From a virus (lineage: Duplodnaviria > Caudoviricetes): a stretch of 64,000 nt of DNA. Under the pieces are notes generated by a model. It made no database searches. It had not been told where the DNA came from and was given only the letters and a program-made list of their open reading frames with translations. How positions within the stretch are numbered: the first letter of the stretch is position 1; every line of letters begins with the position of its first letter. Both the position numbers and the translations under genes were made by a program. Location: IMG/VR virus record IMGVR_UViG_3300042291_000844, positions 128,001 to 192,000 of that record. One strand, 5' to 3'. This document shows positions 4,738 to 28,296 of this stretch, one piece after another.

Positions 4738-5382
4738 TTATATTAGGGATTTTGAAAATGGAATGGTATTACTTTCATTTTTAATAAATTCTGAGTAGGG
4801 TTTCCAATCTATTCCCCTTTGAATGTATTGTAACTCTGCATTACATCTACTTTCAATATCAACATTACTTATATCTATTGTTTTAGAATAGTGTCCGGTC
4901 ATCCACCAAAAATTACCAGAGTACATTATATTTGTAGGATTACTTACTGTTTCTAATAAAACACCATAGGTATTAAACGTATTGCTATTTAAAACATTAA
5001 ATACATTATCAATATACTGAATATTGTATAATTGCATCACATTTCTCCATCGGATGGATTCGGAATCCATTTGTTTGGTTACTCCCTTTGTGTGTAGGTA
5101 AAAAATATAATCATTATTATTAAATGATTGTTTATCTTTTTCTATTAAATTTAATGTTACAAATTCATTACCCATTAATTTAATATCACCAATTATAATT
5201 TTTGAATCATATTCATAAATTAATTTGATTATATCATCTACTGAATTATTATTTTCTGATATTGAGATACCAATAGTTAATGAGTATGGTTGATTAATAT
5301 ATTTTTTTATTAATGCAAGTTGTTCATGTATTATAGATTCAACCCCCTCTATTGCATAGATGTGATAATATATCCGTATCAT
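4738..5382 (-). CDS. Hypothetical, glycosyltransferase-like phage protein
   Basis: YYHIY, FYLHTKG, YSGNFWW, R..AE motifs; ends KSLI. Confidence 0.6.
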   Translation of the reverse strand: MIRIYYHIYAIEGVESIIHEQLALIKKYINQPYSLTIGISISENNNSVDDIIKLIYEYDSKIIIGDIKLMGNEFVTLNLIEKDKQSFNNNDYIFYLHTKGVTKQMDSESIRWRNVMQLYNIQYIDNVFNVLNSNTFNTYGVLLETVSNPTNIMYSGNFWWMTGHYSKTIDISNVDIESRCNAELQYIQRGIDWKPYSEFIKNESNTIPFSKSLI

Positions 5383-6425
5383 ATTAAATTCGTATGGGTA
5401 GTATCAATAAATTCGTATAGGTTATGAAATAGATTTGTATTTCTACCTATCTTATTAAATTCTTTTTTAAATAATTCATGTTCTGGGTGATTAGAATCCC
5501 AAACTTGTTTTAATTTAAATTCCGCTTCAGAAAATGTTCCCCAATTAGTTATTTTACCAAAAAAAACATTTACCTTTTTGCCAAAAATAGAATACATTAT
5601 ATTATAAAAGGTTTCCATTTCCATATAGTTACTATCTTGAACAACAAACGAAGTTTTTACCCATTGTAGTGTTTTTATTGTAGAAATAAAATTTAAATTA
5701 TTTATTAAGGTATCCCATTTACCACCCAATCTTGTTTTGTTTTCATATGTATCACGTGTTCCCGCATCTATTGATATTTCGCAACTTGTTACATACTTAT
5801 GAACATTTGGCATACTATCCCACATTTCCTTTGTCCACATTGAGGCATTAGTATGTAAATGTATTCTTGTTAGTTTTGGATATTTTTTTGGATTAAAATT
5901 TTTTAAATAATTTCTAAACCCAACCGAAACGAATGGGTCACCCGTACCTGTAATATATAAAGTTTTTACGTTTGCTGAATAATGGGTATCAATTTCATCT
6001 ATTGTTTTTTCAATTCGTTCTATGCCTTTACTACTTTCAACAATTAAATCTACCCTACACGATGGACATTTATAATTACAAGTCCTATCAAAATTCATTA
6101 AAATTCTGGTCGGTGTAGTCGGTTCAACAATTGGAGTTGTATACTTTGAATTTGATTTTAATGTAATTGGACCGGATACATCTCCATATTTTAATAATCT
6201 ACTTAAATATGGACACAATTCTTTGTTACAATATTTAAACGAACCATCTAAAATAGAATTTCTAATATCTAAAATAGGTTCACTATTAAAAGCATCTTTT
6301 AATGGAATTTCATTAAGTTTAATTTCGTTTGGTAACCACGATGGACAACAAACAAAACCAACATTATTATGTATTTCTAATGATGTAAACGGAACACTAC
6401 AACTATATTGTTTTAAATCTATCAC
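5379..6425 (-). CDS. Radical SAM protein with N-terminal SPASM/twitch-like Cys cluster
   Basis: CNYKCPSC (CxxxCxxC), TGTGDPF, ISIDAG, N-terminal C..P...CC...C...CP; ends TNLI. Confidence 0.9.
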   Translation of the reverse strand: MIDLKQYSCSVPFTSLEIHNNVGFVCCPSWLPNEIKLNEIPLKDAFNSEPILDIRNSILDGSFKYCNKELCPYLSRLLKYGDVSGPITLKSNSKYTTPIVEPTTPTRILMNFDRTCNYKCPSCRVDLIVESSKGIERIEKTIDEIDTHYSANVKTLYITGTGDPFVSVGFRNYLKNFNPKKYPKLTRIHLHTNASMWTKEMWDSMPNVHKYVTSCEISIDAGTRDTYENKTRLGGKWDTLINNLNFISTIKTLQWVKTSFVVQDSNYMEMETFYNIMYSIFGKKVNVFFGKITNWGTFSEAEFKLKQVWDSNHPEHELFKKEFNKIGRNTNLFHNLYEFIDTTHTNLI

Positions 6426-7078
6426 TATATCAATCCATTTATTTTTTTATCTAATCTTACTTTTTTGTAAGGCGAATTAATCCATTCATCAATACAAAAT
6501 TGATTATATTTTATCTTACAATATTCATTTAAACGTTTTATCGTTTCAATATCTTTATCAACAAATATATCTTCATAATAAAATAATGGGTATCCTTTAT
6601 TCGAGATAGATTTCAGAATCAGAGATTGGGATTCTAAATGACTAGTTAATCCTACTATATGATGTTCATCTAATTCATTTAAATCATAATACTTAGGTTT
6701 ATGCCAGTATGGAGAAACTGTTCTATTTTTTGATAATCTAATATGATAAACCAACGATTCGGCTTGTAATCGTTTATCCTTTCTTTCTAATACTATTATT
6801 TTATCAAAAAAAGAATAGAACCAATCCCAATATTCTTCTACATTTTTAAAAGATTCATATGGATAATTATCACTATCTATAAATGTTTTTAATAATACAT
6901 TTTTTTTATTTGTTATAGTATCATATGTTTTTAGTTTGTCGTCTCTATCCGGATTTATAAAATTAAATGGTTCAAAAAAAGTATTATATTTTTTGTGTTC
7001 TTTAGTTAAACAACAATTTAAATAATAAAATATTGAGGTGGAGCCACTCCTACCATTACACACAATTGCAATCCTCAT
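6425..7078 (-). CDS. Sulfotransferase-like P-loop protein
   Basis: GRSGSTS, FFEPFN, LERKD..QAES, YYED; ends NGLI. Confidence 0.7.
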   Translation of the reverse strand: MRIAIVCNGRSGSTSIFYYLNCCLTKEHKKYNTFFEPFNFINPDRDDKLKTYDTITNKKNVLLKTFIDSDNYPYESFKNVEEYWDWFYSFFDKIIVLERKDKRLQAESLVYHIRLSKNRTVSPYWHKPKYYDLNELDEHHIVGLTSHLESQSLILKSISNKGYPLFYYEDIFVDKDIETIKRLNEYCKIKYNQFCIDEWINSPYKKVRLDKKINGLI

Positions 7079-7593
7079 ATAATATTAAATTTTGACTGTT
7101 TTTTTGAAAACCATATAACTAAAACATCTCTCTTACCTGATGTTACTTTTTTAATTTCATGTATATCTTTTCCACCATTAAATACAACATAATCTCCTTC
7201 ATTTTTTAACGATACGCTTTCATCATTTATATACATTTCGCCACCTGTAAAATCGGATGACAATAAAATACTGACGGTCTTGTGTGTTGTAAATCTATCT
7301 TTATGTTTTTTAGCATAACCATTTTCACCATATATTAATCTATGCATTATGTATAAATTATCAATAGGTTCTTCAAATTTATTACAAATAAATTTATTTA
7401 AATTTTTATTTTCTAAAGTATAAACCCAACTATTATCTGGAAAAAGAGAGACACCATCATCTTTTTTAAGATGTGTGGCAAAATATAATTGAGGATGGGA
7501 TGCTTTTATATATGCTAAATCATCTTCATTCATTATTCGGGTAGTATCTAATTCAGATTTTAAAAAACCTAAATCATCGATTGATAGTTTCAT
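7075..7593 (-). CDS. 2OG-Fe(II) oxygenase
   Basis: HKD...FTGGE...H..KKV.SGKR; ends FNII. Confidence 0.85.
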   Translation of the reverse strand: MKLSIDDLGFLKSELDTTRIMNEDDLAYIKASHPQLYFATHLKKDDGVSLFPDNSWVYTLENKNLNKFICNKFEEPIDNLYIMHRLIYGENGYAKKHKDRFTTHKTVSILLSSDFTGGEMYINDESVSLKNEGDYVVFNGGKDIHEIKKVTSGKRDVLVIWFSKKQSKFNII

Positions 7594-8222
7594 ATGATTT
7601 TATTTATTTTATTCTTAAATTCTACAATTGGTTCATCTACATTTAAAAATTTATGTAATTTAATATAAAAATCATAACAACCTCGTGCACCAGGATGCCA
7701 ATCTATTACATCGCCACCTTCATCTGCAATAGAAGTTACTTTTATTAATTCTACAAACTTTTTTGTTTTTTCATAAAAATCATCGTTCCAGGTCACAAAA
7801 ATTGGTTCATATTTTTTATAAAAATATTTTAATTTTTTAATAAATAATATTTCAGAATCCCTATCCCCATTATACCAATGTTCAGTTTCTTTGACCCTTA
7901 GTTCTAATAGTTTTTTAGCAAACGATTTATCACTATACCATTCCCAATTTAAATATTTTAAGTTGTGATTTGTATCTCTTTCCCCAAAATATCTTCGTGG
8001 GAATCTACCGGGTGCAGTAAAGACTATAACTAATCTATCACCTTCTACATAATTTGGTATATTTCCAGTTTGATATAATATAGAATTATTATCAGACCCA
8101 AATTTTCCCAATTTAATAATATTATAATGATTAGATAAATAGTCTGTCCAGTGTGTTTCTGGTAAATCCCAATCTACAAAACTATCACCACAAATGTATA
8201 TGTTATTTTTTTTGGTTAACAT
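7590..8222 (-). CDS. SGNH/GDSL-like hydrolase or acyltransferase
   Basis: GDSF, G..N, DWHP; ends NKII. Confidence 0.75.
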   Translation of the reverse strand: MLTKKNNIYICGDSFVDWDLPETHWTDYLSNHYNIIKLGKFGSDNNSILYQTGNIPNYVEGDRLVIVFTAPGRFPRRYFGERDTNHNLKYLNWEWYSDKSFAKKLLELRVKETEHWYNGDRDSEILFIKKLKYFYKKYEPIFVTWNDDFYEKTKKFVELIKVTSIADEGGDVIDWHPGARGCYDFYIKLHKFLNVDEPIVEFKNKINKII

Positions 8223-8788
8223 TATATAATAGTTTTATTTGATTTTAATTTAGGATAATCAAAATCAGTTTCTGTCATCCAAATATTTAATGCGTACCTT
8301 ATCCCGTTGGTTACCGGTAAAACCCCATGGTATGTATCAGACCCATTAAATGAAATACTATCACCTAATTTTAAATCACACAATGTCAGACCAGTTAGTG
8401 TTTCAAAATCATAAGGAGGATTCACATCTTCAGTTAAAGCAAATTGTCCACCGATAAAATTATCAGAAAGAACAATTACTGTAGTTAATTCGCTTGATTT
8501 ATCCTTATGTAGATTAAGATATCTACCATCATAATATGAAGTTAGACTGATATTAAAATTCTTTAAATTAAATGATAGGTAATCAAACCATAATTTAAAG
8601 TTTCCGTTTTTATAATTATCGGTTAATAAATTAATTATTCTTTTTTTAAATTCTTCATCATACATTCTTCTACAATCCCAATGTTCGGTTGAACTATATG
8701 AAAAGGGTTCACCAAATTTAAGACAAAAATTAATTATATCGTTGGCGGTTTCTCTATTACAAAAATTATTATTTATGGTATAATTCAT
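8222..8788 (-). CDS. 2OG-Fe(II) oxygenase (prolyl-4-hydroxylase-like)
   Basis: LHKD, FIGGQ, YHGVLPV..GIRYALNIW; ends KTII. Confidence 0.85.
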   Translation of the reverse strand: MNYTINNNFCNRETANDIINFCLKFGEPFSYSSTEHWDCRRMYDEEFKKRIINLLTDNYKNGNFKLWFDYLSFNLKNFNISLTSYYDGRYLNLHKDKSSELTTVIVLSDNFIGGQFALTEDVNPPYDFETLTGLTLCDLKLGDSISFNGSDTYHGVLPVTNGIRYALNIWMTETDFDYPKLKSNKTII

Positions 8789-9606
8789 AATAGATGTGAT
8801 TTTTTTGGTTTATTATATACTAATAAATTGCCGTTATTTATAAATTTATATAATTCATCGGCAATTAATTTATATCCATTATTGCTTGGATGTTTACCTG
8901 CTGTAGTACTTATCCAATTATTACCATCCTCCCATACATCTTTTCTATTAGTATCAATTAATAAGTTTGCCATTGTTTTATTTTGATAACCCCAATATTT
9001 ATCACTCTCTATTAAATCGGTTTTATCAACTAACTTATGGATATTTCTATTAATCATTATATCAAACGCGTCACAAAAAAGATATCTGATTCCTAATTCT
9101 TTAAATATAAATTGAAGATGTAAAATATAGTTTTGATTCACTATATCATAGTAAGTATCATTGAATAAATTACCTATGTAATAATCTCTAAAATTTTTCT
9201 CCGCCCTATTATAGTTTATATTATCACTATTAACTCCATCAAAAATATATTTTAAAAGGTGTTCTTTACTTTTATATCGTTTGCCCCAAATAAAAAAATC
9301 ATCTTCAGTAGGGAAAAAAGGTAATGAATCCCGTAAAGATGATGACCACATAATAACAACAAAATCATCTTGAGTGATGATTTCGTTTTTTAATTGATAC
9401 GATACTGCGTTAAATATTGCATTATTTGAAAATGCCCCAACTCCATTATTTTTAACTTCACATTTTAATAGTTCTGATAAGTGTTTAGGCCAACAATATT
9501 TTTGTCTTATTAGTGTTCTTTGTTCAAAATCATCCGTACTATATTCATCTTCAACATTTCCACCAACCCCCTCAGTCCAACTATCTCCAAATGTAAACAA
9601 TTTCAT
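8785..9606 (-). CDS. SGNH/GDSL-like hydrolase or acyltransferase
   Basis: FGDSWTEG, G..N..I, KHPS..GY; ends SHLL. Confidence 0.8.
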   Translation of the reverse strand: MKLFTFGDSWTEGVGGNVEDEYSTDDFEQRTLIRQKYCWPKHLSELLKCEVKNNGVGAFSNNAIFNAVSYQLKNEIITQDDFVVIMWSSSLRDSLPFFPTEDDFFIWGKRYKSKEHLLKYIFDGVNSDNINYNRAEKNFRDYYIGNLFNDTYYDIVNQNYILHLQFIFKELGIRYLFCDAFDIMINRNIHKLVDKTDLIESDKYWGYQNKTMANLLIDTNRKDVWEDGNNWISTTAGKHPSNNGYKLIADELYKFINNGNLLVYNKPKKSHLL

Positions 9607-9617
9607 AATGCATAATA

Positions 9618-9761
9618 TTAAAGATGTGTTTCTTTAATTTTAGCTACAAGTTCTTGAAATGCAGTTGATATTTTTGTTTTTACAACGGTCGATAATGGAG
9701 CAATAACTGTCTTAATAACTGTTAATGGTCTTTCTTCTCTAATTTTTGGTGTCTTTGCCAT
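9618..9761 (-). CDS. 47-aa basic amphipathic peptide
   Basis: MAKTPKIREERPLTVIKTVIAPLSTVVKTKISTAFQELVAKIKETHL; not in ORF track. Confidence 0.6.
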   Translation of the reverse strand: MAKTPKIREERPLTVIKTVIAPLSTVVKTKISTAFQELVAKIKETHL

Positions 9762-9796
9762 AATATTTTTTTATTTTAATTTAAATTATATACTAA

Positions 9797-11287
9797 TTAT
9801 AGTTTGGGTGGTGGTATTCCCTGGTCACAGGTTGGACAAAAAGGAGCACAACCATACCCACCACAATAATAAGAACCACAACCCCAACAACTATTATGCA
9901 TTACACTAAATATTCCATCTCCAATATCCACTAAGAATAAATCGCCGGGTGCAAAATCTAATGAATATATTGTTTTGTATTCAAACACCATTTCTAAATT
10001 TGTAATTGTAATTGTTGTTAATTCATTTGTATTTATATCAGTTACAACTAATTTATCTCCAACATATAAACTATTTACTTTTTCAAATCTAGTTGCGGTT
10101 GAATCTTTTTCTTCAATATAATATGTACATCCAGGTGCATCTGTCCAAGTTTTACCATCTTCTAATGTTATTTTTATCATAATCACTTCTGCCGATTGCG
10201 ATACCATACCTATTAATTCAGATTGTAATGATGTTAATGTATCATTTGATTGTTGTAACGTACTATCCCAACCATATGTCACAATTTCATTTGTAAAAGA
10301 TTTAGCTTCATTTTCATTTGAATCTACAAAATTTATAGAACGAATATAATCGCCTAATTGTATGGTGGTAACATTTGTTAATGTACCATCGTAGTTTAAG
10401 ATATTTGAATCATCATCGGTATGATAATCACTCTCAGTTTTACCTATTTCTTTTGTAATATATTTATATCTTGTTTTTTGATTTAATTTTTTGGTGCCAG
10501 TAACAAATTCATCAGCGGTAAACGAAATCGGTATTATTGAAGATTGTGTGTATCCACCCATATTAATAATATCTAAATTTGAACCATATATAATATCAAT
10601 TCCTCTTATAATTGAGTATCTACCGTCTACCAAATTATCTTCTGAAAATATAAATTCTTGAATTAAATAATTACTTTCAGCTGAGTTTATTGTATCATTT
10701 AATTCAGTATTATTTGAAACTGTATATAATGCGGGGTATTGTGTTCCATCATATTGGGGATAACGATACTTTATTAATAGGTTTGGATTTGTAGTAGTGG
10801 TATAATCTACTTCATCTAATGTATTTAAATTTAACGTATCAGATGTATACTTTGTTTTTGGAATATACTCTGAATCTTTCATTAAATTAAAAAATTCAAA
10901 TTTATCAGCACAATACGTTTCATCTACTAATGCAGTTGTATCAAATGCTTGTCTTAAAATAAATTTAGTATCAGTATCTTCTATAAATGGTACAGTAACC
11001 GAACCCGCTGGTACAATATGGCCAGTATACGTTATATTATTTTCTGCACATTTTTCTTGTAATATTTGTAGAAATCTATGTGGTTGATTTAATGGTTTGA
11101 ACGCATCACCTTCCGTCCATATATAATGGAACTCAGTAATATTATTAGCATTTAACATATCAAATAACGTAGTGTAATCTAATAAATCAGCACCCTCATT
11201 ATAAATTGTGGTATTTGTATTTATTTCTAAAAACTTAACCGAACCATTTTTTTGTAGATAATCACTACCAATTATTGTTGCTTTCAT
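9797..11287 (-). CDS. Circularly permuted ATP-grasp + Hint domain + Cys-rich C-terminal peptide
   Basis: N-terminal GSD...LEINTNT; DKFEF...IPKT; LIQEFI; Hint-like DG...IQLGDYI, LEDG, LYVGDKL, YSL...HN followed by SCWGC... Confidence 0.7.
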   Translation of the reverse strand: MKATIIGSDYLQKNGSVKFLEINTNTTIYNEGADLLDYTTLFDMLNANNITEFHYIWTEGDAFKPLNQPHRFLQILQEKCAENNITYTGHIVPAGSVTVPFIEDTDTKFILRQAFDTTALVDETYCADKFEFFNLMKDSEYIPKTKYTSDTLNLNTLDEVDYTTTTNPNLLIKYRYPQYDGTQYPALYTVSNNTELNDTINSAESNYLIQEFIFSEDNLVDGRYSIIRGIDIIYGSNLDIINMGGYTQSSIIPISFTADEFVTGTKKLNQKTRYKYITKEIGKTESDYHTDDDSNILNYDGTLTNVTTIQLGDYIRSINFVDSNENEAKSFTNEIVTYGWDSTLQQSNDTLTSLQSELIGMVSQSAEVIMIKITLEDGKTWTDAPGCTYYIEEKDSTATRFEKVNSLYVGDKLVVTDINTNELTTITITNLEMVFEYKTIYSLDFAPGDLFLVDIGDGIFSVMHNSCWGCGSYYCGGYGCAPFCPTCDQGIPPPKL

Positions 11288-11314
11288 AAATGTTTATTTT
11301 TTTCTGGATGTACC

Positions 11315-11323
11315 TATAAATAT
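11315..11323 (-). promoter_or_regulatory. Candidate late-promoter motif ATATTTATA(G)
   Basis: Directly upstream of the ATP-grasp-Hint gene. Confidence 0.5.
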
Positions 11324-11347
11324 ATTAAAATTGAATTTAAGACCATT

Positions 11348-11650
11348 TTAAATAATACTAGGATTTTTTTTAATTTCAAGTGGTTCTAAATAATTAGAAT
11401 CAACTTCATTCCATTTTTTTAATCCACATGCATTATAAGTTGTTGAAAATACTTTTTTATTCAATGGACACCCACATTCACCACAATACGCACTCCATTT
11501 TAATCCTTTTATTACTTCTTTTCTATAATCACACCCTAAACAAACATCAAGTCTTAATTTAGCTAATTCCTCTTGTTTTGGTGTGGGGTTTAAAGAAATT
11601 TTCCAAGCATCAAATATTTCTTTATAATTAATTATAGGTTTAGGTATCAT
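11348..11650 (-). CDS. Small Cys-rich protein (DUF6171-like)
   Basis: R...CLGC...CGECGC.L.KK......C...KW; ends PSII. Confidence 0.7.
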   Translation of the reverse strand: MIPKPIINYKEIFDAWKISLNPTPKQEELAKLRLDVCLGCDYRKEVIKGLKWSAYCGECGCPLNKKVFSTTYNACGLKKWNEVDSNYLEPLEIKKNPSII

Positions 11651-11651
11651 A

Positions 11652-12389
11652 TTATATTAATGTTTTATTATTTTTTTGAATATCGTAATAATCATAAATA
11701 TCATTATATTTTTTGATGAAATCATCATTCATTTTTAAATTACAATCAAAATGTTGACTTCCATTTAAGTTTTCCATTTTAAATGGTTTATCTGTTTTAT
11801 TAGATACCCATTCCTCTAATTCTGTAAAATTTCCAAATTCAAACCATTTTATTTTTGGGTTATTATTATGCCAAAATGATATTGGCCTGAATAATATTAA
11901 TAACATATTTTCCAGATAATCGTCCAAATACTTTTGAATTCCATTTCTTTTTGCAAATTCTTTAATTACTAAAATTTGAGAAGTTAGTGATATTAAATCT
12001 AAATCTTTAAAAAATAATATATCATCCATATTTAATTTTTTTAGTATATTTACTAATTCGTTTGGATATTTTAGATGTTCCATTTCGACCATATCAATTA
12101 TATGTTTCCATAATGAAATAAATCGTTCATATCTATTTCGTTTAATTGTTATGATATCATACTCATTCCCAAATTTTAATAGTAATAAATCTAATCTTTC
12201 GTGAAGATGTACCATATTATCTGCGAGCGATTCATTACTCAAAGTTAAATTAATGGGTATATGGTAATTATCTACAAATGATTGGTCAAAATGTTCAATT
12301 TTAAATCCACTTCTTAAACATGATATATAAAATGAAGTGGATGCACATCTTGGTAATGATATAAATAAAAATTTATTCTCTACTAACAC
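11652..12389 (-). CDS. Sulfotransferase family protein
   Basis: ISLPRCASTS (5'-PSB-like), RNRYERFIS (3'-PB-like); ends KTLI. Confidence 0.75.
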   Translation of the reverse strand: MLVENKFLFISLPRCASTSFYISCLRSGFKIEHFDQSFVDNYHIPINLTLSNESLADNMVHLHERLDLLLLKFGNEYDIITIKRNRYERFISLWKHIIDMVEMEHLKYPNELVNILKKLNMDDILFFKDLDLISLTSQILVIKEFAKRNGIQKYLDDYLENMLLILFRPISFWHNNNPKIKWFEFGNFTELEEWVSNKTDKPFKMENLNGSQHFDCNLKMNDDFIKKYNDIYDYYDIQKNNKTLI

Positions 12390-13027
12390 TATATTAACGA
12401 TTTTTGGTTTTTAATAAAATCAAATCCAACATTACCTGCCATAACAATTCTATCTAAGGTTGATTCCGATGCACTATGTGGTGAATGGGGCATATCTGCC
12501 TCCATTATAATTAAATCATCTTCTTCCGGCATTATCCAATATTCCGTATTATCTTTTCCTTTAAAACATAATACCCCATCATCACCATTCATTACATCTG
12601 GCATTTGAATATAATAAACGTATGTATAATGTGGAATAAAGTCTTTATTTTTTTTATTAATTTCAGTATGTATATGATATTTTTCATCATTATAAAACTC
12701 TTCTTGTACTGGATTTTTAGAACGAACAACGTTGACCCAAGCATCTGTATTAATCTTATTATAATTTATACCGGTTTCATTATAAATTTCTTTACATTTA
12801 TTAATACCAATTTGAATTATTTCATCTAATTTTGTTTCTACCTTAATATCACCAATAAAATTTAAATGTTCATTCCATTCTTTTTTATAACCAAACCCAT
12901 CAGTTTTAACATTAGGCTGGGATTCTATAATAGAATATGCCTCTTTTAAAAACAATTGTTTATCACTTATTCGATTTAATTTTACTTTCCAAATATAAGT
13001 TGTCTCATCAAAAAATATCTTTTCCAT
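12389..13027 (-). CDS. Putative 2OG-Fe(II) oxygenase
   Basis: HIH, YTYVYY, G.L.F, PH, RIVMAGN; ends KSLI. Confidence 0.7.
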   Translation of the reverse strand: MEKIFFDETTYIWKVKLNRISDKQLFLKEAYSIIESQPNVKTDGFGYKKEWNEHLNFIGDIKVETKLDEIIQIGINKCKEIYNETGINYNKINTDAWVNVVRSKNPVQEEFYNDEKYHIHTEINKKNKDFIPHYTYVYYIQMPDVMNGDDGVLCFKGKDNTEYWIMPEEDDLIIMEADMPHSPHSASESTLDRIVMAGNVGFDFIKNQKSLI

Positions 13028-13033
13028 AATTTT

Positions 13034-13639
13034 TTATATTAAAGTAGTTTGGGTTTTAAGGTATTTTTTATTTATATCTAAAAAATAAAAATTAGAACAA
13101 AACACAATCCGTTCAGTATTTGAGTTTATATTAGTTTCTGCACGATGTAACAAATTTGCATCAAATATTAATAAATCACCTACGTTTGGTAAGATTGAAA
13201 ATTCTTCGCCATTTTCATCTTTAAATATTAAATGTCCTTCTTTGTCATTTAAATTATTTGGCATTTTACTATAATAAGTTAATGTATAATCTGGTGTTTG
13301 TTTTATAAAACTTGTTGATATTTTTGAATTATGTCTATGAAAACCGGAATAACTATTATTATTTTTACTAATAAAAATCCATTCATTTGTATTATAAAAA
13401 AATGGTTTGTTAACTAAGTAAAACATAGAGTCTATGATATTCTGTCTAACAATATTTATATTTTTAGAATTTACTTGCACATACGATTGTATACCAGGTG
13501 TTTCTGGGGTTGGGTGACTTACATTCTGACTAATTTCAATAGAATACCATAATTCTTTTGATAATTGTTCATTATCTATTCCTTCTATGCGTTTTCTATA
13601 TATAATTATATTTTCACCTAATTTTATTTCCTCTAACAT
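13034..13639 (-). CDS. Putative 2OG-Fe(II) oxygenase
   Basis: FHRH, GHLIF, P..GDLLIF...LLH, RIVFCSN; ends TTLI. Confidence 0.75.
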   Translation of the reverse strand: MLEEIKLGENIIIYRKRIEGIDNEQLSKELWYSIEISQNVSHPTPETPGIQSYVQVNSKNINIVRQNIIDSMFYLVNKPFFYNTNEWIFISKNNNSYSGFHRHNSKISTSFIKQTPDYTLTYYSKMPNNLNDKEGHLIFKDENGEEFSILPNVGDLLIFDANLLHRAETNINSNTERIVFCSNFYFLDINKKYLKTQTTLI

Positions 13640-13645
13640 ATTATA

Positions 13646-14281
13646 TTAATTTAGTTTTTTATAAAATATATCAGCTAATTCTTTATGACCTACTTCAGAA
13701 AAATGGGCATCGTTAATTACGCCATTAGTTTCATCTTGTAATCTATTTAATAAAGTTCCCACATACCAATCTGTTGGTAGTAATTGTTTTTTAAGATGAA
13801 CATCAGTACATAAAGCAAAGGGTGACCAAAAAATAACTTTAATGCCTTTTAATTTAAATATAGTACTAAGTAATTTAGACCAATTAACTATTTCATCCCA
13901 ATATAACCTACTCATTCTATTAATCCGAATTTGCTCTAATGTATTGATATCGATAAATTTATACGATTCTAACTCTGAAACTGAATTTCTGATAGTACTC
14001 CATTTATTATTTTTTTCTAACCTAAAACGAGATGGTTCTGTCCAACCTATAATAACAATATCTCTAGTATTGATAGAATCTATGTTAGTAATGATAGACT
14101 CAAAGATAGTATTATTATCAACACCCCCATTACCACATTGGTTAACTTCCATATCTAGCATTGTAGATAGGTAGTGAGAAAATATTTTTGGTTGATATCC
14201 TTTGTATTCTTTATATTTAATACCCAATCCATACATCTTTTCCCATGTTGTAGAAAACGAATCACCAAATACCCAAATCAT
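13646..14281 (-). CDS. SGNH/GDSL-like hydrolase
   Basis: FGDSFS, G..N..I, IIGWT...R, DAHFS..GH. Confidence 0.75.
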   Translation of the reverse strand: MIWVFGDSFSTTWEKMYGLGIKYKEYKGYQPKIFSHYLSTMLDMEVNQCGNGGVDNNTIFESIITNIDSINTRDIVIIGWTEPSRFRLEKNNKWSTIRNSVSELESYKFIDINTLEQIRINRMSRLYWDEIVNWSKLLSTIFKLKGIKVIFWSPFALCTDVHLKKQLLPTDWYVGTLLNRLQDETNGVINDAHFSEVGHKELADIFYKKLN

Positions 14282-14877
14282 AAAAGATTTTGTTTTGTTG
14301 AATTTGTTTTAACTAATGACACCCAATTTACTAATGAATACCTAATCCCATTCACTACTGGCGTTACTCTATGCAGTAATCTTGAATTAAAAATATATAA
14401 TGTCCCAATTTTATTTTCTATTGGTACAATCTCACCTTTAATGTTTTTTATTTCTAATAGACCGCCTTCGTATGCATTGTTTAACTGAATTACTATTGAT
14501 GTAAATCTATTTCTATATATGGTACCAGTACTATCGGTATGCCAATCAAAGTACTCACCTTCTTTATACTCAGTAAATTGAAATGGTCCAAGTCCCGTAA
14601 CTTCCATACCATTTATATTAAAGGTTTTTCTTAATTTATTTGTTAATCTGTCATTTAAAAATTCTAAATTAGATATCCAGCCAATCGATGATTTTCTATT
14701 TGTTTTATTATGTGGAGTATTAGAATCATCACCATATACTTTAGCATCTGATAATGATAATTCATTTTTACATTTGTTTAAAAGCAACTCACACTCTTCG
14801 GGTGATAGGAAATTTTCAAATATGTCTATATTGTCAATCATATATATAAATATATAAATAATAAAAAAAAGGGTCAC
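14278..14877 (-). CDS. PKHD-type 2OG-Fe(II) hydroxylase
   Basis: FDWHTD, YEGG.LE, LHRVTPV..GIRYSLVNW; ends QNLL; true start probably MIDNID. Confidence 0.9.
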   Translation of the reverse strand: MTLFFIIYIFIYMIDNIDIFENFLSPEECELLLNKCKNELSLSDAKVYGDDSNTPHNKTNRKSSIGWISNLEFLNDRLTNKLRKTFNINGMEVTGLGPFQFTEYKEGEYFDWHTDSTGTIYRNRFTSIVIQLNNAYEGGLLEIKNIKGEIVPIENKIGTLYIFNSRLLHRVTPVVNGIRYSLVNWVSLVKTNSTKQNLL

Positions 14878-14913: not shown

Positions 14914-15294
14914 TTATCCAATTTTGATTTGAACTTTCTTTGGTTTTGCTTCATCGTATTTGTCAGTTGTAATGATTAATAAACCATTATCAAATTTAGC
15001 TTCCGATTTAGTTCCATCATAATCCTTACCAAGTGTAAAAGTTAAATCAATATCCGTAACTAATGAAGAACTGGTTTCTTCTTTTTTTGATTTAATTAGC
15101 ATCTGAGTTTCAGTAACTTCCAATTTAATGTTCTTTGGATTGTGGCCCAATACATTTAGAGTTAATTGATACTTCCCATCTTCCAATACCTTACCCTCAT
15201 ATCTATTGAAAGATGAATAGGTTGATGTAGAATTCCAAGTTGGTAATTCGGATTCAAATAAATCCAATAAGTTTGTAATGTTTGCTGTGTACAT
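14914..15294 (-). CDS. Small heat shock protein (Hsp20/alpha-crystallin)
   Basis: Y.L...V.G......I.LEV...L.IK; A.FDNGLL.I. Confidence 0.85.
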   Translation of the reverse strand: MYTANITNLLDLFESELPTWNSTSTYSSFNRYEGKVLEDGKYQLTLNVLGHNPKNIKLEVTETQMLIKSKKEETSSSLVTDIDLTFTLGKDYDGTKSEAKFDNGLLIITTDKYDEAKPKKVQIKIG

Positions 15295-17631: not shown

Positions 17632-18858
17632 TCAATTGAAAGAGTATTTAACCCAGCTCCCACCTATTTTCTTATATCCATTTATTTGAGAGTCGTGGAA
17701 ATTCTCAGCCACTATATCTAATACCCCGTCCTTATCTACATCATCTACTTTAAAGGTACTCCAACCATATTTGTCCGATTGACCATACACACCCCCACCA
17801 TCTAATGAATCGTTGAAATATGAGGGGTCTAATGAGTAACCATTCGTGGTCTTTATATAAGTAACTAACTTAGTTTGTATTTGGTCTTTATCCGCCCTAA
17901 GTTCTACTATATCCAAATCGCCATCTGAATCTAAATCTATAAACTCAACATCAACACAAAATGGAAATTCGGTATGTTTTTTGAATTGTATAGTTTTAGA
18001 ATTTACAAACGTATTATTATTAAAAATAAGTGTAGTATTTCCATACACATCATTCCCACCTATTAATATATCATCTTTACCATCTTTGTCTATATCTAAT
18101 ATTTCATAGACCAAAATTGCCGATGTATAATTATTTAATTCAATATTTGATTTTATAAAATTTCCTTTACCATCCCCATACCAAACAAATGTTGCAGTAA
18201 CAACATCTACATTTCCATCCCCATTTAAATCACCTGTGGCACCATTATGAAACCAATATTTATTTGGGTTTGGTATAGTGAGGTATTCAAATTTGTTTGT
18301 GGGGGTTGATAATAGTACATTAAAGTTTCCAGTATAATCACCAATAACTCGTTCATCCACTCCTAATATTACAAAATCAGGTTTACCATCTTTATTAATA
18401 TCAGTTTTTAAAACTTTATGTGCAGTACTTCCAAATGTATTACCATTAATATAAGTTGTATCTGAATAGAAGTTTTTATTATCTCCTTTATTTACATACC
18501 ATCGTATTCCTTTATAACCAGATAACCCATTACTATATGAGGTAAGAATATCTATAAACCCATCACCATTAATATCAGAATAGGATTGTCCTGCACCATA
18601 ATCACCCTTCTCATCGTTGTTTAATATTTTTTTAGCAGAATTTAATTCAATGTTATAATACCACATAAAAAATATCCCAGATTTTTGATTAAGATATGAT
18701 TGTGAATATAGGGTATCTACTTTTTTGACAACAATAGGGGGTTCTATTGGTTTTGGTTGTGGTATATCCTCTTTGCTACAACTAGCTAAAATTAGGAGGG
18801 GTAGTAGTAAAATAGGTAAGTAGTGCTTCAGATTTTTCTTTTTCAAATTGTTTTTCAT
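17632..18858 (-). CDS. FG-GAP/VCBS repeat lipoprotein
   Basis: Lipobox LASC-SKED; repeated DINGDG..DI, DINKDG..DF, DLNGDG..DV, DIDKDG.DDI, DLDSDGDLDI. Confidence 0.85.
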   Translation of the reverse strand: MKNNLKKKNLKHYLPILLLPLLILASCSKEDIPQPKPIEPPIVVKKVDTLYSQSYLNQKSGIFFMWYYNIELNSAKKILNNDEKGDYGAGQSYSDINGDGFIDILTSYSNGLSGYKGIRWYVNKGDNKNFYSDTTYINGNTFGSTAHKVLKTDINKDGKPDFVILGVDERVIGDYTGNFNVLLSTPTNKFEYLTIPNPNKYWFHNGATGDLNGDGNVDVVTATFVWYGDGKGNFIKSNIELNNYTSAILVYEILDIDKDGKDDILIGGNDVYGNTTLIFNNNTFVNSKTIQFKKHTEFPFCVDVEFIDLDSDGDLDIVELRADKDQIQTKLVTYIKTTNGYSLDPSYFNDSLDGGGVYGQSDKYGWSTFKVDDVDKDGVLDIVAENFHDSQINGYKKIGGSWVKYSFN

Positions 18859-20039: not shown

Positions 20040-20762
20040 TTAGCGAGTAGGGTTACTTTTTTCCTTAAATTCTTCGTATGCATCTAATAGGGCATCTACA
20101 ACTGGGTGACGGTGGTTTGTAAGTAGAGTCTGAGAATCCATATCCTTAATTTTCTTTGCTGCGGTTACTAAGAATTTGAATCCACTATCTCCTCTATATT
20201 TTAAATCTACTTGTTGTGAATCGCCACATACTACCATCTTGCTCCTCAATCCCAAGCGAGATGTAATCATTTCCATTTGGTCATTAGTGCAGTTTTGTGC
20301 TTCATCTACAATAATGAATGCATCTAAGAAAGTTCTACCTCTCATAAATGCAAGGGGTACAATTTCAACTTCACCACTTTCTAATATTTTATCAATCTTT
20401 TCTTTATTGTATAATTGATAAAAATTGGAATAGATTGGTTGCATCCACGGCTCCATCTTTTCTCTAAGGTCACCGGGTAAGAAACCGATTTCCTCCTTAC
20501 TAACTGTCGGACGAGTAATGATAATTTTGTTTATGGATTTTTTAAAAAGTAAATCTAAAGCTACCTGGCATGCCAAAAGTGTCTTACCACTTCCAGCCTT
20601 ACCACTTAAAATGGTAATTGCATTATTTAGGATTTTATCTTTAGCTTCTTTTTGTTCTTCGTTAAGAGTTAATTGAAATTTTATTGGACTCTTAGGTCTT
20701 TGTTTTAGGTCTTTGATATTTTCTGTAATCTCTTTATGCTTTGATGATGAATTATCCGCCAT
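20040..20762 (-). CDS. phoH: PhoH-like ATPase
   Basis: GKAGSGKT, IGFLPGDL.EKM.PW, MRGRTF, DEAQN, GDSQQVDL. Confidence 0.95.
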   Translation of the reverse strand: MADNSSSKHKEITENIKDLKQRPKSPIKFQLTLNEEQKEAKDKILNNAITILSGKAGSGKTLLACQVALDLLFKKSINKIIITRPTVSKEEIGFLPGDLREKMEPWMQPIYSNFYQLYNKEKIDKILESGEVEIVPLAFMRGRTFLDAFIIVDEAQNCTNDQMEMITSRLGLRSKMVVCGDSQQVDLKYRGDSGFKFLVTAAKKIKDMDSQTLLTNHRHPVVDALLDAYEEFKEKSNPTR

Positions 20763-22545: not shown

Positions 22546-23661
22546 TTAATGTGAATCTTCTACATTATGTTTTTCTGCAAAGATTAAATAATCTGGGTTA
22601 ATAACTTTTGCAATCTTTTGTCTTTCGCCGGTTTGGTGTTTGATTACAATTCCTTCCTCTGGTACTTTTGTATTTGGAATAAAATTATTGAATGTGTATT
22701 TATCTTGTACTTCTTGTGACCAACTTCCGTAGTGTAAAATTTCTACATAAGGTAATTCCAAAATATCTTTAATCAGTAACCTAGCATTAATAACACTTAA
22801 ATACTCACTATTCTCTTTTACATCGAATCCTACGAACTTAATCTCCGTTAACCCATAATCATATCCCTTTTGGATTCCCGCTCCGTAAATCTCACCATAT
22901 AAGGTAATACCATCACCAATCTCCGGCTCCATTGTATTACTCTTAACATAATCCCACAACTTATTTTTGATATCGTATTTCCTTTCAATATCATACCAAA
23001 CATTGGTATCATAGAATCCTTGAGAATCAGAGCCTTTCTCTACATTATGTGAACCAACTACAAATTCATATTCAGTCCATTTGTTACCAAACAACTTTTT
23101 AATTCTATCTAATATAGATAATTTAGTTTTCTTAACAATACCATAACGAGCATTTGTTCCGTGAATCTTACGAGTAATTTCCACAGTGTCATCTTCAGTA
23201 AACATTCCCGGTACATTTTTTAAGTTAGGAAACTTATAGTAGACATGAAAGTGTGGGTTATCTTGATAACGAATCTTTCTACCACTTGCTAATTGAACCA
23301 TTTTAACTGGTGGTTCATATTTGTAAATACCTAAATAATCCATCATATCATCACCTTCACTAACGATTGGTGTTAACGTATATGGAATAATTAAAGATTC
23401 ACTATAAACTCCTCTTAACTTAACAGTTCTAACCCTACCACCATTACGAAGATAATTGGTTACTCCTAATTTTTCGGATAAATCAAATGGAATTACCGCA
23501 TCGGTTGTTGCACATATTACTAACTCACCAACATTATGAGCATCTTTTTTTACTATACAATTCCAACCACCAACTACTGCTAATTCAATATTATCAGCTC
23601 CTTCGATTGGTTTGATTTCATTTATTGTTGCAACGTAGCAAACTGAATTATTATTTTCCAT
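22546..23661 (-). CDS. RNA ligase (DRB0094/Rnl2-like, N-terminal OB-like domain)
   Basis: I..I.PIEGADNIE; motif I KIHGTN; YGEIYG; FDV; EGIV; AKVI. Confidence 0.9.
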   Translation of the reverse strand: MENNNSVCYVATINEIKPIEGADNIELAVVGGWNCIVKKDAHNVGELVICATTDAVIPFDLSEKLGVTNYLRNGGRVRTVKLRGVYSESLIIPYTLTPIVSEGDDMMDYLGIYKYEPPVKMVQLASGRKIRYQDNPHFHVYYKFPNLKNVPGMFTEDDTVEITRKIHGTNARYGIVKKTKLSILDRIKKLFGNKWTEYEFVVGSHNVEKGSDSQGFYDTNVWYDIERKYDIKNKLWDYVKSNTMEPEIGDGITLYGEIYGAGIQKGYDYGLTEIKFVGFDVKENSEYLSVINARLLIKDILELPYVEILHYGSWSQEVQDKYTFNNFIPNTKVPEEGIVIKHQTGERQKIAKVINPDYLIFAEKHNVEDSH

Positions 23662-25991: not shown

Positions 25992-26065
25992 CGGACTGTA
26001 CGGGACTCGAACCCGTGAACTCCACCGTGACAGGGTGGCATGATAACCAACTTCACCAACAATCC
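25992..26065 (-). tRNA. tRNA-Asp(GTC)
   Basis: Cloverleaf, G73. Confidence 0.95.
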
Positions 26066-26183
26066 AAATTTTCGGAACTTATGGATTTTCGCCACCAAAA
26101 TCTCTTTTCTCAATTGGCCTCATTGAGTGAGTGTTATCGCGTAATTCGTCATTCCTAATCTAAGGTAATTAATCTTAGATTTG

Positions 26184-26256
26184 AGCCTCCTATCGGAATC
26201 GAACCAATGACCTACTGATTACAAATCAGTTGCTCTACCTGCTGAGCTAAGGAGGC
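26184..26256 (-). tRNA. tRNA-Thr(TGT)
   Basis: Cloverleaf. Confidence 0.95.
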
Positions 26257-26265
26257 TTATGTTTG

Positions 26266-26337
26266 TACTCCCAACGGGATTCGAACCCGTATTACTACCG
26301 TGAAAGGGTAGTGACCTAACCATTAGTCGATAGGAGC
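26266..26337 (-). tRNA. tRNA-Glu(TTC)
   Basis: Cloverleaf. Confidence 0.95.
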
Positions 26338-26356
26338 ATATAATTTTATAACAATG

Positions 26357-26388
26357 TAAAGATACGAAGAATATTCCACATATCCAAA
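26357..26388 (-). promoter_or_regulatory. Bacteroidota-type promoter inside the tRNA array
   Basis: TTTG-N20-TATCTTTA. Confidence 0.7.
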
Positions 26389-26389
26389 T

Positions 26390-26851
26390 TTAATTGTGTA
26401 TTTTTACTAAGTGGTCAGCAGCATAAGTTGCTATTGGCCCTAATGATTTATATCTTACTGAATACCCCATACCTTCAACCATACCCACTGCTTGTCTAAA
26501 CACTTCGTTAGATTTAAAGCGTGGGTCTGGGTTCAAGTCAATATCAATCCACTTAGGTTTTGGAATACCAGCCTCGCGTAATTCTTCGGCAGTTTCAATT
26601 GCAAACCAAACTTCTTGTAATAATCTAACTGAACGGATTCTTTCTCTTTCACTATTCCATCTTCTATACAATACATGTGCACCCTTTCCTTTTCTATATA
26701 AGGCAACTACGATTGCATAAATAGTTTTGTTACCTGAATTTTGTGAATCACAACCAATTAAGATTTCTGCATCGGTATTCGTAATCATATATTCTTTGAT
26801 ATATGAAATCAATTCCACTTCTTCTGCCGTATACAATTTTTTATAAACCAT
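26390..26851 (-). CDS. RNase H-like YkuK/DUF458 family protein
   Basis: IGCDSQ, RL..EV..AI..A, IDIDLN, K......AADH. Confidence 0.85.
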   Translation of the reverse strand: MVYKKLYTAEEVELISYIKEYMITNTDAEILIGCDSQNSGNKTIYAIVVALYRKGKGAHVLYRRWNSERERIRSVRLLQEVWFAIETAEELREAGIPKPKWIDIDLNPDPRFKSNEVFRQAVGMVEGMGYSVRYKSLGPIATYAADHLVKIHN

Positions 26852-26871
26852 AATTTTACCTTTTTATTTTG

Positions 26872-26946
26872 TACCCATAGTAGGACTCGAACCTACAATT
26901 GTGTGGTGTCTAAAGCCACTGCGTATTCCAATTCCGCCATACGGGT
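26872..26946 (-). tRNA. tRNA-Leu(TAG) with short variable region
   Basis: Leu-type D arm, loop TTTAGAC, about 6 nt variable loop. Confidence 0.75.
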
Positions 26947-26955
26947 ATATTTCAG

Positions 26956-27041
26956 CAGAGAGTGAGGGGCTCGAACCCTCGCGGCTTTAACACCCTAACG
27001 ATTTAGCAAACCGTCCCCTTCACCAACTTGGGTAACTCTCT
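26956..27041 (-). tRNA. tRNA-Ser(GCT)
   Basis: Class II cloverleaf, G73. Confidence 0.95.
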
Positions 27042-27043
27042 AT

Positions 27044-27120
27044 TGGGGTGATTAATGGGATTCGAACCCATACTATCAGTACCACAAACTGACGTGCTGA
27101 CCATTAACACTATAAACACC
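27044..27120 (-). tRNA. tRNA-His(GTG)
   Basis: G-1:C73, CCA encoded. Confidence 0.95.
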
Positions 27121-27126
27121 ATATGT

Positions 27127-27195
27127 TGCGTGTTTGAGGTTTGAACTCAATTGGTCATCCTTATGAGAGATAACTCTTTTCCACTAAGCCACGCA
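27127..27195 (-). tRNA. Divergent tRNA-CAT (Met-like)
   Basis: Loop CTCATAA, good T arm, weak D arm. Confidence 0.55.
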
Positions 27196-27200
27196 ATGTG

Positions 27201-27272
27201 AGGCGGGTATTGGATTCGAACCAATGTTAAAGGTTTTGCAGACCTCCTCCTAACCACTCGAGACAACTCGCC
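27201..27272 (-). tRNA. tRNA-Cys(GCA)
   Basis: Cloverleaf, U73. Confidence 0.95.
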
Positions 27273-27337
27273 ATTATTTGTTGTTCACTTTTTTTGTTTG
27301 TTCACCGATAGTGAACACTCTAAATTTGTGAACATTG

Positions 27338-27410
27338 TAGTTCCATAAGGACTCGAACCCTAACTTTTTCATCCGTAGTGAAAGGTGCTATCCAATTACA
27401 CCATAGAACT
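27338..27410 (-). tRNA. tRNA-Arg(ACG)
   Basis: Cloverleaf. Confidence 0.9.
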
Positions 27411-27416
27411 ATTTTG

Positions 27417-27487
27417 CACCCCCTGAAAGATTCGAACTTTCATCTGCGGTTTTGGAGACCGATATGCTACCATTGCACCAAAGAGAT
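27417..27487 (-). tRNA. tRNA-Trp(CCA)
   Basis: Cloverleaf. Confidence 0.9.
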
Positions 27488-27585
27488 AATTAATCAAGAA
27501 GATAGCCAGAAATTAGTGACGTCAAATCTCTTTAAGCTATATGAACTATCTTCTTGTTAGGATTGGTTAATTACTCCAATCTTCG

Positions 27586-27659
27586 TTGGTAATGCGGGAT
27601 TCGAACCTGCCACCTTCTCGGTATCAGCGAGATGCTCTAACCAAATGAGCTAATTACCA
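27586..27659 (-). tRNA. tRNA-Ile(GAT)
   Basis: Cloverleaf. Confidence 0.95.
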
Positions 27660-27721
27660 ATTTTCCTCACTTCTCCGGCTTATTGGACCGGATGCCATAT
27701 AGGGAGTGTGAGGAAACTCCG

Positions 27722-27797
27722 TAGGGTAAGCAGGATTCGAACCTGCGTGCTCTTCGTCCCAAACGAAGCGAGATAAACCGGACTCCTCTATTACCCT
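27722..27797 (-). tRNA. tRNA-Pro(TGG)
   Basis: Cloverleaf. Confidence 0.95.
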
Positions 27798-27803
27798 ATG
27801 TTG

Positions 27804-27877
27804 TGAACCCGAATGGACTCGAACCATTGACTCCCTCATTAAAAGTGAGGTGCTCTAACCAACTGAGCTACGGATTC
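27804..27877 (-). tRNA. tRNA-Lys(TTT)
   Basis: Cloverleaf. Confidence 0.95.
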
Positions 27878-27882
27878 AATTG

Positions 27883-27955
27883 TGGGACCTAATGGAATCG
27901 AACCATTTCCTTTGGATTTTCAGTCCAACGTACGCACCAGCTATACCAAAGCCCC
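27883..27955 (-). tRNA. tRNA-Phe(GAA)
   Basis: Cloverleaf. Confidence 0.95.
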
Positions 27956-27961
27956 TAATTG

Positions 27962-28043
27962 TGAGAGTAGAAGGACTCGAACCTCCGAACTCGAATGAGA
28001 ACTGATTTACAGTCAGTTGCAATTGCCGCTATGCGATACTCCC
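27962..28043 (-). tRNA. tRNA-Tyr(GTA)
   Basis: Class II cloverleaf. Confidence 0.95.
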
Positions 28044-28048
28044 AATTG

Positions 28049-28122
28049 TAGAAGATATAGGATTCGAACCTATGACCCTTTGGATGTAAACCAAATGCTC
28101 TAACCAACTGAGCTAATCTTCT
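28049..28122 (-). tRNA. tRNA-Val(TAC)
   Basis: Cloverleaf. Confidence 0.95.
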
Positions 28123-28127
28123 ATGTG

Positions 28128-28199
28128 TTACTCGAATAGGATTCGAACCTATACTACATCAGTCAAAGTGAGGTATGCTAACCATTACACCATCGAGCA
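28128..28199 (-). tRNA. tRNA-Gln(TTG)
   Basis: Cloverleaf, U1:A72. Confidence 0.9.
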
Positions 28200-28206
28200 A
28201 TTTATG

Positions 28207-28278: not shown

Positions 28279-28280
28279 AT

Positions 28281-28290: not shown

Positions 28291-28296
28291 CAATTG

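Follow-up and report, generated by a model that had tools for sequence, protein, structure and literature searches.

Type-A bacterial intein-like (BIL) and pretoxin-Hint (PT-HINT) domains have the Hint fold and end in His-Asn followed by a non-nucleophilic residue; their activity is autoprocessing and not splicing, and the C-terminal cargo that they set free is variable (PMC4031507). Type-A BIL domains with His-Asn mostly cleave, the C-terminal junction can be cut by cyclization of the terminal Asn even when the N-terminal steps do not take place, and the aminosuccinimide that remains is later hydrolyzed (PMC4031507). The 496-residue protein described here is encoded by an open reading frame (ORF) at 9797-11287, minus strand, of a 64,000-nucleotide stretch of phage DNA (positions 128,001 to 192,000 of IMG/VR record IMGVR_UViG_3300042291_000844, Duplodnaviria; Caudoviricetes; hereafter the window). 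It has three parts, a ligase (residues 1-283), a Hint domain (about 287-465), and a cysteine-rich tail (466-496), and on balance we favor a reading in which one-sided autoprocessing by the Hint domain at Asn465 frees the tail as a peptide with three disulfides. The phage Hint domain shares with type-A BIL and PT-HINT domains the fold and the C-terminal His-Asn, whereas the N-terminal Cys and block-B His that they keep are both absent. It was not assigned to the type-A BIL class: the His-Asn and a non-nucleophilic +1 residue are found, and the N-terminal Cys is not. The cargo differs as well, being a toxin domain in PT-HINT and BIL systems but a Cys-rich peptide of 5-99 residues, carried on a phage enzyme, in this family.

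The N-terminal part of the protein has its own relatives among the permuted ATP-grasp enzymes YgiC/YjfC, GspS (2io7), eukaryotic glutathione synthetase, and Cp1B (9cjn), in all of which the D...E-x-N strand comes first in the chain. Cp1B is the amide ligase of E-64 biosynthesis (PMC12568646), and enzymes of this family perform acid-amine ligation by way of an acyl-phosphate. The phage ligase comprises only about 283 residues, compared with 370-600 in YgiC/GspS-type enzymes (identity 9-16%), and, unlike them, it appears to have its covering helix supplied by a separate 47-residue protein, here called s47.

Borosin (OphMA-type) precursors combine a modifying enzyme and a core peptide in one polypeptide and are, to our knowledge, the only established precedent for a cis-fused peptide that is ribosomally synthesized and then modified post-translationally (RiPP). 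The phage protein likewise joins an enzyme domain to a short C-terminal peptide, but where borosins use a methyltransferase and an external protease it seems to have a built-in release module. Engineered C-terminal-cleaving intein tags are similar in lacking Cys1, in depending on Asn cyclization only, and in releasing a peptide, and the SICLOPPS and intein-thioester cyclotide constructs resemble the order HN - peptide - Cys1-Hint of the long homologs described below. These laboratory tools are artificial, whereas the natural long homologs have their first Cys at +2 and not at +1; the window protein, unlike intein cyclization constructs, is without a second Hint domain. If cleavage at Asn465 does occur, nature would here have pared a Hint domain down to nothing but C-terminal release, a design that engineers have made by mutating inteins.

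Architecture and Distribution

All the sequence motifs listed in an initial annotation of the window are present in the protein. AlphaFold2, supplied with alignments of 137-138 sequences, predicts the whole chain with a local confidence (pLDDT) of 90.6 and a global score (pTM) of 0.85. Structure prediction of the two domains, which the annotation had named as a check, assigns residues 1-283 to the permuted ATP-grasp fold and about 287-465 to the Hint fold.

The ORF is a real gene. Its homologs form at least 579 clusters at 90% identity (E ≤ 0.01) and 275 representative clusters at 50% identity, and 152 family loci are confirmed in IMG/VR. Over the ligase and Hint domains the ratio of nonsynonymous to synonymous substitution rates (dN/dS) is about 0.2, and the gene is therefore under purifying selection. 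The family occurs in uncultured phages only. Members with known taxonomy are all viral (Uroviricota), in keeping with the phage origin proposed for the gene, and many lie on contigs of 150-325 kb.

Searches with the single protein found no Pfam family at E ≤ 1, no PHROGs, and no PDB sequence, and a profile of the close family alone was also without a match in these libraries. No match was found by tblastn in 50,697 GenBank phage records with the protein and the cores of two distant homologs as queries. The literature searched on Hint domains with ATP-grasp enzymes, on permuted ATP-grasp enzymes with peptides, and on phage RiPPs with ATP-grasp enzymes does not describe the architecture. It is confirmed as real and widespread, and as undescribed in the searched literature and curated family libraries.

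The Hint Domain

The Hint domain (9893-10429, minus strand) is identified by Foldseek and by a Hint-only profile. The model matches hedgehog 1at0 (E 2.8e-8, TM-score [TMt] 0.77), the Mtu RecA mini-intein 2in0 (TMt 0.80, root-mean-square deviation [rmsd] 3.1), and the BIL domains 2lwy (TMt 0.79) and 6y75. The structural alignments end exactly at N465, as expected for the Hint domain ending in HN that had been proposed from the sequence. No Pfam Hint model matches the Hint domain of the 496-residue protein. A clean control profile, made from the Hint regions of homologs of 530 residues or less that are without a second Hint domain, matches 2jmz, the Mja KlbA intein (E 2.7e-10), and also BIL domains (3e-4).

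The N-terminal catalytic residues of the Hint fold are missing. His289 stands at position 1, where the residue varies across the family, and the earlier suggestion that the N-terminal nucleophile is absent thus holds; the histidine position of the block-B Thr-x-x-His motif is occupied by Pro385. Blocks F and G are kept. Block F is recognizable as Y441...D449-x-F451, and the residues ending at 465 read VMHN. The codons for His464 and Asn465 (CAT AAT; 9893-9898, minus strand) mark the predicted Asn-cyclization cleavage site, N465/S466. This pair is invariant in 120 close homologs and is kept in 131 of 138 homologs family-wide; almost no other pair is conserved in the domain, where identity otherwise falls to 14-30%.

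Among the 120 close homologs the commonest +1 residues are Ser (56), Gly (31), Ala (13), and Thr (12), and the first Cys after HN is found mostly at +2 or +3. With Ser, Gly, Ala, Thr, or Pro as the +1 residue, the first Cys in most cases one or two positions further on, and no Cys in block F, members of the family cannot splice. An intein identity was rejected, since no Cys, Ser, or Thr nucleophile is obligatory at +1 and a homolog without a Hint domain (P0141) is without a tail too. The class 2 and class 3 intein mechanisms were rejected for want of a conserved +1 Cys and of a block-F Cys.

The distribution of the His-Asn pair within the family provides a further indication of its function. 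Eight homologs are tail-less, with only three to seven residues after the Hint domain and no Cys array. The His is lost in four of these eight, compared with three of 130 tail-bearing sequences (Fisher p 1.6e-4). This concentration of His loss suggests that HN and cargo evolve together, as a processing site predicts.

The Cysteine-Rich Tail

The tail (9797-9892, minus strand, stop codon included) is 31 residues long and rich in Tyr, Gly, and Pro, with six Cys and one Lys adjoining the C terminus; its sequence, directly after VMHN, is SCWGCGSYYCGGYGCAPFCPTCDQGIPPPKL. CxxC pairs occur at either end. AlphaFold predicts no fold for residues 469-496 (pLDDT below 50), and in the model the tail is not docked.

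In close homologs only the six Cys and one Gly never change; elsewhere in the tail substitutions occur, chiefly between aromatic residues, Asn, Ser, and His. The spacing of the Cys is not constant even here: most close relatives have CWC where the 496-residue protein has CWGC. Compared with the body of the protein, the tail accumulates nonsynonymous changes at two to three times the rate. Diversifying selection was considered and rejected: dN/dS is 0.29 for the whole tail and 0.43 for its non-invariant columns in the close family, and positive selection is not seen at this resolution, the synonymous sites being near saturation. These values suggest that the tail is under relaxed purifying selection within the close family.

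Across the representative clusters the picture is different. Short tails range from 5 to 99 residues and their sequences are unrelated. The initial annotation had proposed to test whether the peptide after HN is hypervariable with fixed Cys spacing; family-wide the diversity is extreme and the spacing is not fixed, and in the close family, with its low dN/dS, the tail is fairly well conserved.

The number of Cys per tail is six (25 tails), eight (33), ten (7), 12 (2), four (1), or one (1), and is thus even in 68 of the 69 Cys-bearing tails (binomial p 2e-19). When the long tails of ten proteins were scanned with Pfam, neither a known Cys-rich family nor a known toxin fold came up. A structural zinc finger or ribbon was rejected on the grounds that six and ten are not multiples of four, that the spacing is variable, that pLDDT is below 50, and that no Pfam family is matched. 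Because the counts are even without being multiples of four and the spacing varies, pairwise disulfides are favored; Cys4 zinc sites would be a much poorer fit to the tails. An invariant structural zinc finger, which the initial annotation had named as the outcome that would overturn its proposal, is contradicted by the variation of length, sequence, and Cys spacing. If peptides are indeed released, the family would be a large source of small disulfide-rich peptides that is confined to phages, with hundreds of clusters on marine and freshwater phage contigs of jumbo size.

Every close tail has exactly one Lys, zero to three residues from the C terminus. A role for this Lys as a ligation site was rejected, as tail-less homologs and the Hint-less homolog end alike. 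It is possible that the Lys belongs instead to a K..[LI] C-terminal signature common to the proteins of the cluster. In most cluster proteins (4738-14877 of the window, minus strand) the chain closes with [LI][LI] after a run rich in Lys and Asn; the ends of the ligase-Hint protein (..PKL), s47 (..KHL), and a standalone ligase at related locus L089 (..SSKLI) are similar, and the [LI][LI] endings are partly, not wholly, due to ATGA overlaps. By analogy with the structural relatives of the ligase, which act on C-terminal carboxylates, a link between this signature and the ligase is conceivable.

Self-Cleaving Modules Appended in Homologs

One or two canonical Hint domains come after the Cys-rich segment in 18 of 116 representative clusters; they pass the Pfam thresholds for Intein_splicing, PT-HINT, and Hint. 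These appended domains begin with Cys1 (C-F-V-A-G-T...) and end with ...A-N-G-I-L-V-H-N, after which come one to a few residues, usually with Lys. The peptides between Hint domains are without Lys, which returns after the last HN. Eight other clusters of the 116 have, after the Cys-rich segment, a Peptidase_S74 intramolecular-chaperone domain with an S-D-x-x-x-K site. Homologs with appended Hint or S74 domains include P0122-P0133, P0230, P0244, P0250, and others, as well as P0167, for which the Peptidase_S74 score is 25.3 bits against a cut-off of 22, and P0172.

Thus the Cys-rich segment is, in these sequences, repeatedly bracketed by autoproteolytic elements. Because their +1 residue is non-nucleophilic, the appended Hint domains look like type-A BIL domains, inserted just before the usual Lys-containing C-terminal end. 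It is also possible that they simply splice or cleave themselves out.

The Ligase Domain

The ligase domain (residues 1-283; 10439-11287, minus strand) is assigned from the AlphaFold2 model, structure matches, and conservation as a minimal circularly permuted ATP-grasp acid-amine ligase. Its model has a pLDDT of 95.4 when predicted alone. The N terminus carries a D9...E21-I-N23-T-N motif, followed by DKFEF, IPKT, and LIQEFI. In biotin carboxylase and Ddl the D/E...E-x-N Mg-binding strand sits near the C terminus, and it is with this strand of biotin carboxylase-type chains (E276..E288-x-N290) and of Ddl that residues 9-33 align in the family profile. The profile match to PDB ATP-grasp chains is weak alone (E 0.5-3) but consistent.

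The best structure matches are all circularly permuted enzymes. In VIA-align the top match is E. coli YgiC (7uka; Z 9.9, rmsd 4.2, 202 residues aligned), with further permuted matches to the glutathionylspermidine synthetase GspS (2io7; Z 9.1) and to 3n6x (Z 8.1); eukaryotic glutathione synthetases and Cp1B are the other best matches. Foldseek for the domain gives E 1e-5 with probability 1.0. Permuted enzymes cover residues 1-280 of the model, whereas RimK, LysX/ArgX, TTL, and Ddl align only from about residue 50 (50-283), and this difference bears out the circular permutation first suspected from the position of the N-terminal motif. The RiPP ATP-grasp 7mgv also covers only residues 50-283, with Z 4.6. 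Among curated models, Pfam GSP_synth, CP_ATPgrasp_1/2, and similar entries do not match the domain.

E21, N23, R112, D122, and R228 are invariant in 137 sequences, down to 21% identity, and at least 90% of these keep D9, D104, and K173; Q210-E211-F212 is also among the conserved elements. D9, E21, and N23 constitute the Mg triad, and roles for R112, R228, and K173 in Mg/ATP chemistry are suggested by their conservation. Since the permuted fold and the catalytic residues are preserved, activity is predicted, and we conclude from the model that residues 1-283 are a catalytically intact, permuted acid-amine ligase of the GspS/YgiC/eukaryotic glutathione synthetase structural type.

Proposed Mechanism and Alternatives

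In the mechanism that we propose, the Hint domain, unable to form the N-terminal thioester but retaining the block F/G machinery and the terminal His-Asn, would undergo a single turnover in which Asn465 cyclizes to a succinimide and the N465-S466 bond is cut. The cut would free a peptide of about 3.2 kDa (residues 466-496), which could form three disulfides once in oxidizing conditions, for example after lysis. The ligase would probably be completed by the s47 helix, covering the back of its central sheet. Cleavage and disulfides are what we infer. Cleavage after Asn465 is probable, because HN is nearly the sole conserved pair of the Hint domain and decays with loss of the tail; the complete scheme, with its disulfide-bonded product, is held with less assurance but is still the one we prefer.

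Several observations weigh against this scheme, in which cleavage is predicted from sequence and fold. Pro is often found at +1 in distant homologs, and Pro at this position is unfavorable for Asn cyclization in studied inteins. Four tail-less homologs still have HN. The tail dN/dS values of 0.29 and 0.43 count against it as well, and conservation of the tail in the close family would also be expected of a structural appendage. Disulfides cannot form in the host cytoplasm. Finally, the ligase occurs without Hint domain or tail (P0141, L089).

Of the alternatives, two concern the fate of the peptide. The first, close to what the initial annotation envisaged, is a cis-fused RiPP system, in which the released tail would be the substrate of its own ligase, of 2-oxoglutarate (2OG) oxygenases, of sulfotransferase-like enzymes, of a radical SAM enzyme, and, in relatives, of a halogenase. 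We regard such a system as possible but doubtful. The tail is rich in residues that enzymes of these types modify (Pro, Tyr, Trp, Cys), the synteny of the cluster is strong, and a Trp halogenase and APS kinase are near in relatives. In addition, the closest relatives of the ligase (GspS, glutathione synthetase) activate C-terminal carboxylates of peptides. The ligase itself provides counter-evidence. P0141 (L089), a standalone ligase of 291 residues with 47% identity to residues 1-284, has neither Hint domain nor tail, and at its locus (L089 1036-2850) it is followed by an s47-like gene of 40 residues and a GDSL-like gene. A fusion therefore need not mean an enzyme-substrate relation. The tail-less homologs, moreover, keep all the ligase catalytic residues. 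The ligase clearly has a tail-independent role as well, and probably works with s47.

The chemistry of the tails also restricts what the ligase could do. Among 55 distinct close tails, 28 are without Asp or Glu; in these the C terminus is therefore the only usable carboxylate, and lactone or lactam graspetide chemistry is excluded. A graspetide precursor was rejected on this evidence and on the poor, partial match of 7mgv. These results, together with the undocked tail, weaken the suggestion that the ligase modifies its own tail. Radical SAM is present in only 19 of 83 loci, and the label of sulfotransferase rests on motifs, with no Pfam or PDB-profile match. Halogenase presence does not predict the Trp content of the tail (3.1 vs 2.7 Trp, p 0.18), and this association was rejected. 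That either the fused ligase or the neighboring oxygenases act on the released peptide is a minority prospect, to which we would give about a third of the weight.

The second alternative is a polymorphic-effector cassette. Here the sole task of the Hint domain would be to free an effector at the C terminus that changes fast, perhaps a mini-protein with antimicrobial, anti-competitor, or glycan-binding activity. A well-expressed enzyme gene would merely carry this effector, and the chemistry of the ligase would have nothing to do with it. The extreme family-wide diversity of the tails beside a constant HN speaks for such a cassette, as do even Cys counts, which are typical of secreted disulfide-rich peptides, the swapping of C-terminal modules (Hint/BIL, S74, and other long extensions), and the independence of the ligase from the tail. 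But neither a pattern of immunity genes nor a known toxin fold is seen, dN/dS is below 1, and no export signal is apparent on reading the sequence, no predictor having been run. Tails are also far smaller than the usual polymorphic toxin domains. A cassette of this kind is a tentative proposal, on a par with the RiPP system.

It is less probable that no cleavage occurs at all. A degenerate, structural Hint domain could leave the tail in place as an appendage that binds metal or senses redox state, or one through which the protein interacts with other cluster proteins such as z100, the zinc-ribbon-like product of the upstream gene. Loss of the N-terminal catalytic residues would be accounted for in this way, as would retention of the Hint domain in tail-less homologs, purifying selection on the tail in close relatives, and the CxxC pairs at both its ends; the pTM of 0.85 suggests in addition a fixed packing of the Hint domain against the ligase. 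Such an appendage, though, would leave unexplained the retention of HN in a diverging Hint domain and its decay where the tail is lost. Nor do Cys counts of six and ten with variable spacing suit Cys4 zinc sites, tail lengths of 5-99 residues suit a fixed appendage, or the AlphaFold2 model show the tail folded or docked. We consider this explanation unlikely.

Backbone-cyclized cystine-rich peptides (phage "cyclotides"), in which cyclization of Asn465 would expose an alpha-amine that closes the ring onto the C terminus, the sole carboxylate of the peptide, after its activation either by the fused ATP-grasp as an acyl-phosphate (short forms) or by the appended Cys1-Hint domain as a thioester (long forms), are suggested by analogy and seem very improbable.

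s47 and the Gene Neighborhood

Gene order across 83 related loci is 2OG oxygenase - 245-residue P-loop protein - z100 - ligase-Hint - s47 - (GDSL-like) - 2OG oxygenase. Where z100 or s47 is missing from these loci, the contig is mostly truncated. The same trio of genes is also found around a homolog of 47% identity.

The gene for s47 (9618-9761, minus strand) lies 35 nucleotides downstream of the ligase-Hint gene, which it adjoins in 82 of the 83 loci. Its 47-residue product is conserved over its full length (RP..IK....P.S..LKTK..AF..VV..IK.KHL) and is therefore not a variable substrate. Prediction of the complex with the ligase gave an interface score (ipSAE) of 0.86 (median of three runs), a mark that 51 of 78 solved complexes attain but only two of 108 mismatched pairs; the best control scored 0.00. 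At least 50% of contacts were common to the runs, and the pLDDT of the partner was at least 62. In the predicted complex the s47 helix (residues 18-47) contacts ATP-grasp residues 6-35, 120-141, and 220-250. Its contacts with strand residues 8, 10, 22, 227, and 229 alternate with the active-site residues D9, E21, N23, and R228, which places s47 on the face of the sheet opposite the active site. The prediction supports, but does not show, binding of s47 to the ligase. From synteny and the predicted complex, s47 is likely to be a small structural subunit of a very short ligase rather than a substrate, and the minimal permuted ATP-grasp of 283 residues with its separate 47-residue subunit is of interest as a new small amide ligase.

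Immediately upstream of the ligase-Hint gene is z100 (11348-11650, minus strand), which encodes a 100-residue CxxC...CxxCxC zinc-ribbon-like protein and is present in 78 of the 83 loci. It matches phrog_13558 at 1.5e-6, and among its atlas neighbors is one cluster in which 15% of the members carry DUF6171. A specific tie between z100 and the Cys-rich tail was rejected, z100 homologs being found in two tail-less loci (L086, L093) as well.

The next genes upstream (11652-13027, minus strand) encode the 245-residue P-loop protein and a 2OG-Fe(II) oxygenase (74/83 and 67/83 loci), the latter with a Pfam 2OG-FeII_Oxy_3 match. The P-loop protein is sulfotransferase-like by motif only. Pfam gives no match for it up to E 5, and a zeta-toxin P-loop (E 0.03) is the only thing that its profile picks up; its PRCASTS and RNRxxRFxS motifs are what we take to resemble loops that bind PAPS (3'-phosphoadenosine 5'-phosphosulfate). 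Downstream (8222-9606, minus strand) are a GDSL/SGNH-like protein of 273 residues and a second 2OG-Fe(II) oxygenase (49/83 and 63/83 loci), assigned by Pfam matches. This conserved cluster, with its P4H-type oxygenases and its GDSL-like and P-loop proteins, points to undescribed phage-encoded chemistry.

The flanks of the conserved core are a variable enzyme island. The radical SAM gene of the window lies at 5379-6425. A Trp halogenase occurs in 46 related loci, though not in the window, and related loci also add APS kinase, carbamoyltransferase, SET domain, and other proteins. Two of them, L001 (770-7608) and L084 (1-9030), add carbamoyltransferase, glycosyltransferase 25, APS kinase, Trp halogenase, PhyH, SET, a biotin/lipoyl domain, and two radical SAM proteins.

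Elsewhere in the window, most other ORFs are without a PHROG match, and in a comparison of positions 26000-34000 with GenBank phages near matches are limited to tRNA genes. The window also encodes UvdE (1232-2125), Hsp20 (14914-15294), an FG-GAP repeat protein (17632-18858), PhoH (20040-20762), and an RNA ligase (22546-23661).

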